Source of the DNA: Escherichia phage teqhad
DNA: 64,000 bases
Sequence record: NC_054933.1
Reading direction: 5' to 3' (one strand)
This document shows, in pieces, positions 42,564 to 45,645 of the stretch. Both the position numbers and the translations under genes were made by a program. The notes beneath the pieces are model-generated. The model was not told the origin of the DNA. It saw nothing but the letters and a program-made list of their open reading frames with translations, and made no database searches. The first letter of the stretch is position 1. Every line of letters begins with the position of its first letter.

Positions 42564-42587
42564 AGCCCCAACCTTTCGGCTAGGGCT
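42564..42587 (-). terminator. GAAA-loop hairpin downstream of the IP-like gene
   Basis: Minus-strand RNA AGCCCUAGCC-GAAA-GGUUGGGGCU followed by U-run. Confidence 0.55.
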
Positions 42588-43118: not shown

Positions 43119-43142
43119 AGCCCCAACCTTTCGGCTGGGGCT
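43119..43142 (-). terminator. GAAA-loop hairpin, near-identical copy of the 42564-42587 element
   Basis: Minus-strand RNA AGCCCCAGCC-GAAA-GGUUGGGGCU followed by U-run. Confidence 0.55.
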
Positions 43143-43458
43143 AAGCCTTGCGGCAACCTTGTCGGGGTTCCACCTGCTAAGGCAAGTGTTTGTACGAAAC
43201 GCCGGGATTCGAACCCGGTTATCAAGCAGTTGACGCTACTCAATATTTTTAAAAGGCCATATCTCGACCATATCCGAACGTTCCGTCAAAAACGCTACTC
43301 GGCTTACGGCAAAGATATTTCCTCGAATCGATAATTCGGTGCGCCGTTTCTGCTGTGATGTAAGGGGATATTAACAAATCATAAAGATTTATTAAGACCA
43401 GTCCTTACTCAGGGAACATCAGTCCGACGTCTTGCCGGTAGCGACCCGGCTTCTTGTT

Positions 43459-43534
43459 TGGTCGAGGCAGTAGGGATCGAACCTACGACCCAGGACTTAG
43501 AAGGTCCTTGCTCTTCCTTCTGAGCTATGCCCCG
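43459..43534 (-). tRNA. tRNA-Arg (anticodon UCU)
   Basis: Manual fold: acceptor CGGGGCA/UGCCUCG, anticodon loop CUUCUAA, T-arm GUAGG-UUCGAUC-CCUAC, CCA encoded. Confidence 0.8.
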
Positions 43535-43538
43535 TAAT

Positions 43539-43614
43539 TGGGGTGACCGATGGGAGTCGAACCCATGACTACGAGAATCACAATCTCGAGTTCTACCAAC
43601 TGAACTACGGCCAC
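43539..43614 (-). tRNA. tRNA with anticodon GUG (His by anticodon; C73 present, no encoded G-1)
   Basis: Manual fold: acceptor GUGGCCG/CGGUCAC, D-stem GUUC/GAAC, anticodon stem CGAGA/UCUCG, loop UUGUGAU, T-loop UUCGACU, CCA encoded. Confidence 0.6.
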
Positions 43615-43728
43615 ATTAATACCTACTCCAACAATCAAGATGTCTTCACACGAAATTAAGAGAAGAGTGATCAGTTCAACCCCTATAATCGCGTCAAGTA
43701 GATATTAATGTGACAGTTGTCACAAATT

Positions 43729-43803
43729 TGGCGGACGTGATAGGATTCGAACCTATAACCAATCGCTTAACAGGCGATCGCTCTGCCATTGAGCTACACA
43801 TCC
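43729..43803 (-). tRNA. tRNA-Asn (anticodon GUU)
   Basis: Manual fold: acceptor GGAUGUG/CACGUCC, anticodon stem AUCGC/GCGAU, loop CUGUUAA, T-arm AUAGG-UUCGAAU-CCUAU, CCA encoded. Confidence 0.7.
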
Positions 43804-43807
43804 AAAT

Positions 43808-43894
43808 TGGTGGGGAGTGGTGGAGTCGAACCACCCGAGTCGCAATGACAATGGATTTACAGTCCACACCGCTACCTCTACGGGATAACTCCCC
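43808..43894 (-). tRNA. tRNA-Tyr (anticodon GUA), long variable arm
   Basis: Manual fold: acceptor GGGGAGU/ACUCCCC, anticodon stem GUGGA/UCCAU, loop CUGUAAA, T-arm GGUGG-UUCGACU-CCACC, CCA encoded. Confidence 0.65.
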
Positions 43895-43907
43895 TTAATT
43901 CTTAATT

Positions 43908-43982
43908 TGGTGGCCCTGGGTGGAATTGAACCACCATCTGGCGATTATGAGTCGCTTGCTTGAACCTTCCAGCTACAGGGCC
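43908..43982 (-). tRNA. tRNA with anticodon CAU (Ile-type as in T4, or Met)
   Basis: Manual fold: acceptor GGCCCUG/CAGGGCC, anticodon loop CUCAUAA, T-arm GGUGG-UUCAAUU-CCACC, CCA encoded. Confidence 0.65.
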
Positions 43983-43983
43983 T

Positions 43984-44059
43984 TGGTGCTGATTGACGGA
44001 ATCGAACCGCCGACCTTCTCATTACAAGTGAGTTGCTCTACCTACTGAGCTAAATCAGC
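43984..44059 (-). tRNA. tRNA-Thr (anticodon UGU)
   Basis: Manual fold: acceptor GCUGAUU/AAUCAGC, D-stem GCUC/GAGC, anticodon loop CUUGUAA, T-loop UUCGAUU, CCA encoded. Confidence 0.75.
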
Positions 44060-44064
44060 AAAAC

Positions 44065-44154
44065 TGGCGGAGGCGATAGGATTTGAACCTATGAGTCGCC
44101 GGAGCGACTGCCGGTTTTCAAGACCGGTGCATTAAACCACTCTGCCACGCCTCC
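44065..44154 (-). tRNA. tRNA-Ser (anticodon UGA), long variable arm
   Basis: Manual fold: acceptor GGAGGCG/CGCCUCC, anticodon stem CCGGU/ACCGG, loop CUUGAAA, T-arm AUAGG-UUCAAAU-CCUAU. Confidence 0.75.
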
Positions 44155-44156
44155 AG

Positions 44157-44230
44157 TCTCCATACAAGGATTTGAACCTTGGACCTCCTGATCCCAAATC
44201 AGGCGCTCTACCAAACTGAGCTACACGGAG
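44157..44230 (-). tRNA. tRNA-Pro (anticodon UGG), CCA not encoded
   Basis: Manual fold: acceptor CUCCGUG/UAUGGAG (G-U pairs), anticodon stem CCUGA/UCAGG, loop UUUGGGA, T-arm CAAGG-UUCAAAU-CCUUG; 2 nt from tRNA-Ser. Confidence 0.7.
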
Positions 44231-44240
44231 TAAATTAAAT

Positions 44241-44314
<74 letters not shown>

Positions 44315-44319
44315 AAATT

Positions 44320-44406
44320 TGGTGCGAGAAGTGGGACTCGAACCCACAAGGAAATCATTCCGCAGCATTTTAAGTGCTGTGCCTTTACCAATTTGACCAT
44401 TCTCGC
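44320..44406 (-). tRNA. tRNA-Leu (anticodon UAA), long variable arm
   Basis: Manual fold: acceptor GCGAGAA/UUCUCGC, anticodon stem CAGCA/UGCUG, loop CUUAAAA, T-arm GUGGG-UUCGAGU-CCCAC, CCA encoded. Confidence 0.75.
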
Positions 44407-44412
44407 TCTATA

Positions 44413-45021
44413 TTATTTATTACGTGAAAAAGATTGTTCTATCAATTCTGGACACTTTCGTTCTATCCATTTTCTAGCTTTTTGTGGGCTTATACCTATT
44501 ATTTTAGCAGCTTTACTAACCCATCCAAATTTAGAATAATCGATTTTAACTAATTCTTCGTAAATTTCATCAGTTAAAATCTTTTCATTAATATTTACCA
44601 GTAAATGATATAATTTATTATCATTAGCAATTTTAATGAATCTTTTATAGTTTCCGCCTTTACTTAAACCTAATGAAGTAATTGCAGATGATATAGTAGC
44701 CGAATTTAATAATGCGTTTAAAATTTCTTCATCACTAACATTATAACGCTTTTTATTATTTTTAATATTTTTACCAGCAAAAGTATCAGTTTGCGAATGG
44801 CAATTTGGACATAATAATCTTAAATTTGATTTAAGATGATTTTTATTATTTCCATCAATATGGTCTAATTGCAGAACAATATGCTTATTTTGCCATTTTG
44901 AAATTTTACAAATTGCACACTCATATGGAAAAATATTTTCTTTTATTATTTTGTCTTTCAGCTTTCCTGTACTAAAATTTGGATGTTTTCCTTCAAAAAT
45001 TTCAGCTAATTTAGTATCCAT
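44413..45021 (-). CDS. HNH homing endonuclease with C-terminal helix-turn-helix, abutting tRNA-Leu
   Basis: About 202 aa from MDTKLAEIF; HNH core CAICK...QLDHIDGNNKNH...NLRLLCPNCHS; stop is 6 nt from the tRNA-Leu 5' end. Confidence 0.8.
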   Translation of the reverse strand: MDTKLAEIFEGKHPNFSTGKLKDKIIKENIFPYECAICKISKWQNKHIVLQLDHIDGNNKNHLKSNLRLLCPNCHSQTDTFAGKNIKNNKKRYNVSDEEILNALLNSATISSAITSLGLSKGGNYKRFIKIANDNKLYHLLVNINEKILTDEIYEELVKIDYSKFGWVSKAAKIIGISPQKARKWIERKCPELIEQSFSRNK

Positions 45022-45120
45022 AATATAATTCCCAATTATTAACAAAGGCTCTCAAACAAGAGCCCTTGATGATAGAGGGTATTAATCAGTGCGGTATGAG
45101 TTAATAATAACAAATAATTC

Positions 45121-45645
45121 TTAAAGCAAATTAAACATTTTAACGGTCGGCAAAACAATTTCTTCTTCTATATAAGAGTATTTAACACTCTCAACTACAC
45201 GCAAAAAATCATAATCATAATACTCAGAAGCATTACCTAAAATATTAATAAGTCCTTCAAGCACTTTATTACCATTCACAAAGAATAAGTCAAATACACG
45301 TTCTTCGTCTTCTTCGGATTTATTACCAAGGTCAACTTCTATGTCAAAGACCTTTTTAATGAATTCTGGATAAAGTTGTTCTGAGAACAGTCCTTCAACC
45401 AAGTATTCATAAATAAAAAGCGATTGCTCGCTGAACAAGCCATTACCACAATAACGTTCAGCTTTAGTACTAGAATGTCTGCTTTTAAACTTCTTTAAAA
45501 GATATTGGAATTGTAAGATTTCATGCTCTTCTACGCCAAACAGTGTTTTAGTTTTATAGTTGTCACCATCATTTTCCCAGGTAGTGACATCAATTACGTA
45601 ACCCTGCGGAATTGTAGTACCTAAACAAATATTCATTTTCACCAC
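45121..45645 (-). CDS. hypothetical protein
   Basis: 174-aa ORF followed by hairpin GGCUCU-N6-AGAGCC at 45068-45085. Confidence 0.5.
   Translation of the reverse strand: MVKMNICLGTTIPQGYVIDVTTWENDGDNYKTKTLFGVEEHEILQFQYLLKKFKSRHSSTKAERYCGNGLFSEQSLFIYEYLVEGLFSEQLYPEFIKKVFDIEVDLGNKSEEDEERVFDLFFVNGNKVLEGLINILGNASEYYDYDFLRVVESVKYSYIEEEIVLPTVKMFNLL

Follow-up and report, generated by a model that had tools for sequence, protein, structure and literature searches.

SegB of bacteriophage T4 is a homing endonuclease whose cuts fall inside tRNA genes and which, when T4 is crossed with T2, forces the T4 tRNA region on the progeny; it recognises a motif encoding the T-psi-C sequence, and the recipient sequence is lost (PMC2330249, PMC2988022). 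It also mediates the exclusion of T2 tRNA-region markers (PMC2330249) and, where the Septu defence system acts on the phage, amplifies the tRNA locus (PMC13096335). Other free-standing genes of this kind, those for T4 MobA-E and SegF/SegG, spread by cutting the endonuclease-less allele with co-conversion of the flanks, the Mob proteins being HNH enzymes that nick (PMC2988022, PMC2790892). F-TflIV (HegA) of phage T5 has been grouped with MobA-E in group 1 of the His-Me finger endonucleases (PMC5714182). More generally, reports on phage and mycobacterial tRNA arrays name HNH homing endonucleases as the coding genes found there most widely and implicate them in generating the diversity of tRNA repertoires (PMC5966550, PMC6409571). 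Here we describe a gene of this type in 64,000 nucleotides of Escherichia phage teqhad (NC_054933.1; this whole stretch is called the window below). It encodes an HNH protein and stands at the head of the tRNA array, where T4 has tRNA-Gln. Our preferred reading, to which we assign a probability of roughly two-thirds, is that a free-standing HNH (His-Me finger) homing endonuclease gene has replaced tRNA-Gln(UUG) at the head of the T-even tRNA operon, and that its target lies most probably in or beside tRNA-Gln. No account of the Tequatrovirus HNH gene, of the tRNA-Gln swap, of recurrence at the tRNA-Gln locus or of a flush abutment on tRNA-Leu was found in the searchable literature.

The gene shares with segB its free-standing position inside a T-even tRNA array, and SegB-like genes also fill tRNA slots. 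SegB, however, is a GIY-YIG enzyme and the window gene is predicted to encode an HNH/His-Me finger one, so that the likeness is one of lifestyle and not of homology; moreover, the window gene occupies the tRNA-Gln slot at the array head as an ORF-only cassette (ORF, open reading frame) in which no promoter of its own is recognisable. Among named proteins, the closest full-length homologue is HegA/F-TflIV of T5 (34.7% identity over residues 16-184, 84% of the query; tblastn E = 5e-15). Both proteins have an HNH core with two CxxC pairs and a similar, alignable C-terminal tail resembling a helix-turn-helix (HTH), and the HegA gene, too, belongs to a tRNA region, where tRNA-Ser and tRNA-Ile of T5 immediately precede it. 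The two are nevertheless only distantly related: HegA has an extra N-terminal HTH of the LuxR/GerE type (Pfam E = 8.5e-7) that is absent from the window protein, and its gene is not beside tRNA-Leu or tRNA-Gln. Like the window gene, the genes for MobA-E and SegF/SegG are inserted between or next to conserved genes, but they sit between protein-coding genes and usually leave their neighbours intact, whereas the window gene removes a whole tRNA gene. Earlier reports on HNH genes in tRNA arrays describe co-occurrence; the present comparison gives a one-for-one swap at nucleotide resolution, together with three T4-like lineages affected at the tRNA-Gln locus and ORF 3' ends that abut or enter tRNA-Leu.

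The source phage is T4-like and belongs to the genus Tequatrovirus; the 3.5 kb around the HNH gene match phages a51, MLF4 and phiD1 at 94-97%. ARAGORN found ten tRNA genes in the window, all on the minus strand between 43459 and 44406, in the order Leu(UAA), Gly, Pro, Ser, Thr, Met(CAT), Tyr, Asn, His and Arg (the annotation of RB18 calls the Met(CAT) gene Ile). It found no tRNA-Gln anywhere in the 64 kb. Rfam returned the identical set and no additional tRNA-like element. A first-pass annotation of the window had pointed out that Gln is missing and that in T4 it precedes Leu, and it had suggested a replacement within the array. The absence of Gln is confirmed and the suggestion is supported: T4, T2, T6 and the HNH-less relatives R5505 and RB18 all carry tRNA-Gln at this place. 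tRNA-Gln(UUG) immediately precedes tRNA-Leu in R5505 and is separated from it by one base in RB18, and a contiguous 250-nt leader-Gln-Leu segment is found in T4, T6 and T2 at 98-99.6% identity. Alignment against T4 and its relatives, which that annotation had proposed as a check, places the swap at exactly the position of tRNA-Gln. In the window and the HNH-less relatives the upstream flanks agree base for base as far as TGGGAATTA, which makes up nucleotides 1-9 of tRNA-Gln, and identity resumes at GCGAGAA, where tRNA-Leu begins. Between these points the HNH-less phages have nucleotides 10-73 of tRNA-Gln, and the window has TATT, a 609-nt ORF and TATAGA. The features of the locus are as follows.

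44413-45021, minus strand: HNH endonuclease gene, 202 amino acids (aa), supported by PHROG, alignment and structure model, with Pfam below its cut-off
44752-45021, minus strand: predicted N-terminal HNH/zinc domain, about aa 1-90
44620-44733, minus strand: first HTH-like module, aa 97-134
44437-44571, minus strand: second HTH-like module, aa 151-195
45026-45034, minus strand: TGGGAATTA, first 9 nt of tRNA-Gln, kept as the 5' junction (or as microhomology); from alignment and junction print-outs
44407-44412, minus strand: spacer TATAGA, 6 nt between the HNH stop codon and tRNA-Leu; from junction print-outs
44320-44406, minus strand: tRNA-Leu(UAA), now the first tRNA of the array, 99-100% identical in phages with and without the HNH gene
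43459-44314, minus strand: remaining array of Gly, Pro, Ser, Thr, Met/Ile(CAT), Tyr, Asn, His and Arg (ARAGORN, Rfam)
45104-45130, minus strand: site resembling a T4 middle promoter by consensus match, with MotA box TTTGCTTTA (45130-45122), a 12-nt spacer and -10 element TATTAT (45109-45104)
45044-45067, minus strand: leader hairpin AAGGGCUCU-UGUUUG-AGAGCCUUU, from RNA folding, present in both alleles

The cassette is essentially a bare ORF, with 4 nt before the 609 nt and 3-6 nt after them. At its downstream end the stop codon TAA (44415-44413) is followed by TATAGA (44412-44407) and then by G1 of tRNA-Leu at 44406, exactly the 6-nt distance given in the first-pass annotation. Six HNH-bearing phages were compared and had the same breakpoints, with two junction haplotypes: GGGAATTA...TATAGA and GGGAATCA...TATAGC, the second of which keeps the AGC that trails tRNA-Gln in HNH-less phages. 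Because the breakpoints are shared, the simplest account is a single ancestral event followed by spread through the homologous flanks. The search for remnants of tRNA-Gln, also proposed beforehand, yielded the first 9 nt at the junction and nothing else in or beside the ORF. No extra tRNA-like element was found between 42400 and 45300 (Rfam, E <= 0.1), and the local alignment of tRNA-Gln nucleotides 10-74 to the cassette was no better than chance, 282 of 300 shuffles reaching the observed score.

The distribution of the two alleles was examined with a chimeric query, tRNA-Gln joined to the HNH gene, against 50,697 GenBank phage records; both common tRNA-Gln alleles were within reach of this search. 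By this query the HNH gene occurred in 62 records. A separate search found the contiguous leader-Gln-Leu allele in 448 GenBank records, including T4, T2 and T6, so the HNH gene is present in about one-ninth of the Tequatrovirus records surveyed. In the 60 HNH records listed, tRNA-Gln had no match anywhere; each gave one match, confined to the HNH part of the query. The annotation of a51 likewise has ten tRNAs (a51_tRNA_1 to a51_tRNA_19), all in this cluster and none of them Gln. The HNH and tRNA-Gln alleles are mutually exclusive in Tequatrovirus. A complete tRNA-Gln elsewhere in the cluster, or the HNH gene at this site in phages that retain Gln, had been named as outcomes that would speak against a replacement, and neither turned up in the window or in the 60 listed Tequatrovirus records.

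The first-pass annotation had described the gene as an HNH endonuclease ORF with a C-terminal HTH. The family assignment holds and the HTH description is reasonable, but the start has to be moved. The program-listed ORF runs from a TTG at 45045 to 44413; the true start is the ATG at 45021, giving 202 aa, because the GenBank annotations have 609 nt, PHROG 14736 has a corresponding length and the orthologues have 200-202 aa. PHROG 14736 ('HNH endonuclease') matches the protein over its full length (E = 5.5e-124), and ten further HNH PHROGs match too. None of the Pfam, PHROG and NCBIfam matches belongs to the GIY-YIG family, every nuclease match being HNH. In an alignment of 33 homologues C35, C38, H54, N66, C71, C74 and H75 are invariant; D53-H54, N66 and H75 are invariant or nearly so there, and invariant in a five-sequence alignment that includes T5 HegA. 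The window protein thus has the H-N-H catalytic and metal-ligand arrangement of the His-Me finger endonucleases, and its two CxxC pairs (C35/C38 and C71/C74) provide the zinc site of the beta-beta-alpha fold. An AlphaFold2 model built on the 33-sequence alignment is confident (mean pLDDT, the predicted local distance difference test score, 90.7); in it a beta-beta-alpha domain at the N-terminus precedes two modules of three helices each (aa 97-134 and 151-195). Pfam HTH families match aa 164-192 below threshold only (E about 0.01-0.1), and a C-terminal HTH is plausible from the model.

A protein search (5.8 billion proteins, E <= 1e-5) found 5,510 relatives, three of them full-length orthologues. 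All three are syntenic with the window gene: dNMP kinase, 57A, 57B and the trna.4/.3/.2 homologues are followed by the HNH gene, which heads the tRNA array. In Roskildevirus-like contigs, whose orthologue is 58% identical, the HNH cassette takes the place of the segment that holds tRNA-Gln(UUG) in Erwinia phage Cronus, and 222 nt (contig L093) to 255 nt (L094) of the Cronus segment are replaced. The Marfavirus-like contig (L092), with an orthologue of 68% identity, differs. It keeps tRNA-Gln, the cassette begins 14 nt past this gene, and the tRNA replaced is the next one, the 83-nt tRNA-Asn of Klebsiella phage PWKp18. The claim that the HNH gene replaces Gln therefore applies to Tequatrovirus and to the Roskildevirus-like contigs, but not to the Marfavirus-like one, where the neighbouring tRNA has gone. 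The tRNA-Gln retained there has paired changes in the anticodon stem and T arm relative to HNH-less relatives, while the upstream tRNA-Met is unchanged over its aligned 3' part. The common denominator of the orthologue group is the tRNA-Gln locus, and it is mainly for this reason that we propose a target in or beside tRNA-Gln; two lineages would then have lost this target and the third would carry it in changed form. One of the Roskildevirus-like HNH contigs (L093, 3824-3830) is also without the tRNA-His that Cronus has (L096, 1754-1829) before two tRNA-Ser genes.

The pattern within Tequatrovirus is that expected of a mobile element, as far as sequence comparison can tell. Presence and absence are polymorphic between co-linear close relatives (62 against 448 records, with identical flanks). 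The element is also more conserved than its surroundings, and its distribution does not follow the phylogeny of the flank. The window gene is 100% identical to the copies in slur03, slur08, slur14, G2133 and T4_ev240. Six copies compared had eight real variable sites, six of which are synonymous, with no change at the catalytic and zinc-binding residues, and MLF4 and JEP6 have a 100% identical protein with 4-8 of 612 nt different. Phages that match the window at only 82-92% in the flank about 1 kb upstream have the gene at 98.5-100% identity, and in that same flank the closest relatives of the window are the HNH-less R5505 and RB18 (97-98%). It occurs in several species recognised by the International Committee on Taxonomy of Viruses and in different tRNA-array backgrounds; slur03, for instance, has the HNH gene without the upstream 174-aa ORF.

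Two backgrounds settle the relation to segB. In Killian the HNH gene replaces tRNA-Gln, and a T4-type segB (locus L004, 1790-2455) lies between tRNA-Arg and tRNA-Met/Ile, replacing Tyr, Asn and His (43539-43894 in the window). In CM8 (L005, 2174-2782), as in RB18 (L003, 3017-3667), a segB-like GIY-YIG gene lies between tRNA-Ser and tRNA-Gly, in the slot of tRNA-Pro (44156-44230 in the window). Since Killian and CM8 carry both genes, the HNH gene and segB are independent elements of different slots that can coexist, and the HNH gene does not substitute for segB. The exchange of tRNA-Pro for a segB-like gene is a second one-for-one swap in the array; CM8 has both swaps and is left with six tRNAs.

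As to expression, the site resembling a middle promoter lies about 75 nt upstream of the junction and is conserved in relatives with and without the HNH gene (pattern search); a good match to the consensus, it may act as the promoter. The leader hairpin sits between it and the first gene of the tRNA operon. Neither a T4 late promoter (TATAAATA) nor a separate promoter is present between junction and ATG, and because this distance is only 4 nt the cassette cannot carry a promoter of its own. A sigma-70 consensus scan was uninformative (22 sites against 15.6 expected). The tRNA precursor would then carry the HNH gene as its first cistron, and the GGGA retained from the tRNA-Gln 5' end, 8 nt before the ATG, may serve as a weak Shine-Dalgarno sequence. 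Sequestration of the start region, with GGG/AUG paired to the leader, was considered and dropped, the fold not being significant (z = -1.65). tRNA-Leu folds as a normal cloverleaf beside the HNH gene, and HNH-bearing phages have it unchanged. The 3' end of the HNH mRNA, six bases past the stop codon, would be set by the cut of RNase P at tRNA-Leu.

The following course of events can be envisaged. The cassette would be transcribed with the tRNA precursor from the upstream promoter-like site, and the RNase P cut at tRNA-Leu would free the HNH mRNA. In a mixed infection the enzyme would attack, by nicking or cutting, the allele of a relative that lacks the HNH gene, the site being most probably in tRNA-Gln or next to it. 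Repair by recombination, with the HNH-bearing genome as template, would introduce the HNH gene and remove tRNA-Gln, and the HNH-bearing genome would itself be immune, its target being gone. The first-pass annotation had spoken of an endonuclease-mediated replacement; the replacement stands, and the part played in it by cleavage is what we infer.

More distant relatives of the HNH domain were collected by a profile search of IMG/VR, in which the 80 best loci fell into 66 clusters at 80% identity. In 62 of these clusters tRNA genes lie within 1.5 kb, in 55 they are on the same strand, and in 36 the 5' end of a same-strand tRNA lies within -70 to +30 nt of the ORF stop. tRNA-Leu makes up 20 of these 36 abutting tRNAs against a background of 15% (five are Tyr and two Ser); the binomial p of 2e-8 is to be read loosely, the loci having been picked by similarity to a tRNA-Leu-abutting protein and not being phylogenetically independent. 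Many of the ORFs end inside the downstream tRNA, their stop codon being formed by tRNA positions 8-10 (TAG, TGA or TAA) or by the TAA anticodon of tRNA-Leu; examples are the IMG/VR loci L024, L027, L030, L034, L037, L038, L043, L048, L060, L061, L071 and L081, among others. In GenBank, avDM4 and pEa_SNUABM_12 have an HNH gene followed by tRNA-Leu, and PEi26 has the order tRNA-Leu, HNH, tRNA-Met. The HNH ORFs of Edwardsiella phage PEi26 (L009, 1800-2270), wedged between tRNA-Leu and tRNA-Met, and of Aeromonas phage avDM4 (L010, 1827-2291), overlapping the start of tRNA-Leu, are intact, unannotated and 154-156 aa long. Because the tRNA-abutting relatives have a reversed domain order, with an N-terminal HTH and a C-terminal HNH, and only the HNH domain is in common, they are best regarded as a sister group and not as orthologues.

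Several observations weigh against homing into tRNA-Gln. The Pfam HNH profile (PF01844) scores 17.3 bits, below its curated cut-off of 21.4 (E = 0.005), although two orthologues (P0003 and P0004) carry precomputed PF01844 matches, marked weak; a Foldseek search with the whole model gave no significant match, and a sequence search of the PDB nothing significant (best E 0.39). The census is one of GenBank isolates, and IMG/VR contained no close copy of the gene by protein search or exact junction pattern. The leader, tRNA-Leu and tRNA-Gly are 97-100% identical in all alleles, and since the adjacent flanks are nearly invariant no co-conversion tract can be discerned; ordinary homologous recombination could be the source of the patchy distribution. 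Nuclease activity, target site, homing and mode of expression are all things we infer. Finally, the preference of the distant HNH-domain relatives for tRNA-Leu means that the target could be on the tRNA-Leu side.

The last point leads to the alternative that the enzyme attacks the 5' side of tRNA-Leu or the Gln/Leu junction, tRNA-Gln being lost as collateral damage. It would account for the 20 of 36 abutting tRNA-Leu genes and for avDM4, pEa_SNUABM_12 and PEi26, and the Marfavirus-like sequence past the HNH stop begins GCGAGA..CTGGTAA, resembling the start of tRNA-Leu. These relatives, however, are of a different architecture and share the HNH domain only, and for the stretch in L092 Rfam reports no tRNA at E <= 1, which leaves a weak hint at most. 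The full-length Roskildevirus-like orthologues have no tRNA-Leu nearby, the tRNA-Gln locus being what they share with the window, and a target wholly inside tRNA-Leu, which is intact in HNH-bearing genomes, would leave these genomes sensitive. We consider a tRNA-Leu target unlikely. Less probable still is that the nuclease is kept for the benefit of the phage, by excluding or degrading co-infecting relatives or by promoting recombination and amplification of the tRNA locus under host defences that target tRNA. The mostly synonymous variation and the conservation of orthologues in three T4-like lineages would fit, as would the exclusion of T2 tRNA-region markers by SegB (PMC2330249). Yet a gene found in about one-ninth of the surveyed records fits an optional selfish element, a tRNA gene is removed with no function added, the sequence points to nothing beyond a nuclease and DNA binding, and a beneficial role would be compatible with homing rather than exclusive of it. 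It is very improbable, lastly, that the HNH arrangement came first and most phages acquired tRNA-Gln afterwards, or that the loss of Gln and the gain of HNH are unrelated. tRNA-Gln has indeed been lost without the HNH gene in Sf25, which has a chimeric Gln/Leu tRNA, and in ECp13, which has no array. But precisely nucleotides 1-9 of tRNA-Gln survive in the HNH allele, with the trailing AGC as well in one haplotype, tRNA-Gln heads the array in T4, T2, T6 and other genera, and the census contained no intermediate allele (HNH with intact tRNA-Gln at the site, or an empty site with the same breakpoints).

If the gene is a homing endonuclease gene that replaced tRNA-Gln, it is of a fairly ordinary kind, but the case is clean, natural and resolved to the nucleotide: one tRNA gene out, one endonuclease gene in. 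It illustrates how selfish nuclease genes remodel and erode phage tRNA repertoires, the same locus having been hit in several T4-like lineages. T4, T2 and T6 carry the presumed sensitive allele, which makes homing, target choice and the cost of losing tRNA-Gln experimentally tractable. Phage tRNAs have been linked to the evasion of host defences that cleave tRNA, and SegB has been tied to tRNA-locus amplification, so endonucleases by which tRNA genes are deleted or shuffled have a bearing on this arms race. The wider pattern of HNH ORFs flush against tRNA-Leu, if true, would define a family of tRNA-gene-specific endonucleases with naturally diversified and potentially useful DNA specificities. 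We tentatively go one step further, while thinking it rather less than an even chance, and suggest a broad, unrecognised lineage of HNH homing endonucleases specialised in tRNA genes. Its members would recognise the DNA of tRNA genes and would be bare ORFs within tRNA operons that replace a tRNA or lie flush against one, use the operon promoter and receive their 3' ends from RNase P, and in some of them translation ends on U8-R9-R10 of the tRNA or on its UAA anticodon; the T4-like group would be directed at tRNA-Gln and the sister group at tRNA-Leu and other tRNAs with long variable arms. Such a lineage, if real, would be a main driver of tRNA gain, loss and swapping across tailed phages.

The tRNA-Gln gene itself is variable in HNH-less phages. 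The alleles of R5505 (L002, 3268-3341) and RB18 (L003, 3839-3911) are identical outside the anticodon stem-loop, where they disagree at 12 of 17 positions, with a compensatory exchange of all five stem pairs. Change concentrated in this way suggests either selection (escape from an endonuclease or an anticodon nuclease) or an exchange of alleles. About 343 GenBank records match a tRNA-Gln query of the R5505 type at only 80-90% and presumably carry the other allele. The chimeric tRNA of Sf25 (L097, 1289-1370) has the 5' acceptor and D arm of tRNA-Gln fused to the anticodon, variable and T arms of tRNA-Leu by a deletion whose ends lie in two similar D-arm stretches, CAAGTTGG and CAAATTGG. The HNH gene is absent, and the chimera could be the repair scar of a break in tRNA-Gln. 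In ECp13 (Tequatrovirus; L098, a 5-kb locus) the whole tRNA array is gone, with no tRNA within 5 kb of the conserved leader.

Some further features lie in or near the array. The window has a 114-nt gap between tRNA-Asn and tRNA-His (43615-43728) in which there is no tRNA or Rfam match; the same gap occurs in R5505, a51 and slur03, the other tRNAs of the array being spaced by 1-13 nt. At 43455-43458 the window is without a 351-nt ORF (116 aa, labelled 'trna.2 protein' in CM8) that adjoins tRNA-Arg in R5505, a51 and slur03, a clean deletion of about 366 nt. On the 3' side of the array two nearly identical GC-rich hairpins resembling terminators (AGCCCCAGCCGAAAGGTTGGGGCT and AGCCCTAGCCGAAAGGTTGGGGCT, each followed by a T-run) lie on the minus strand at 43119-43142 and 42564-42587, presumably about where T4 has its small stable RNAs.

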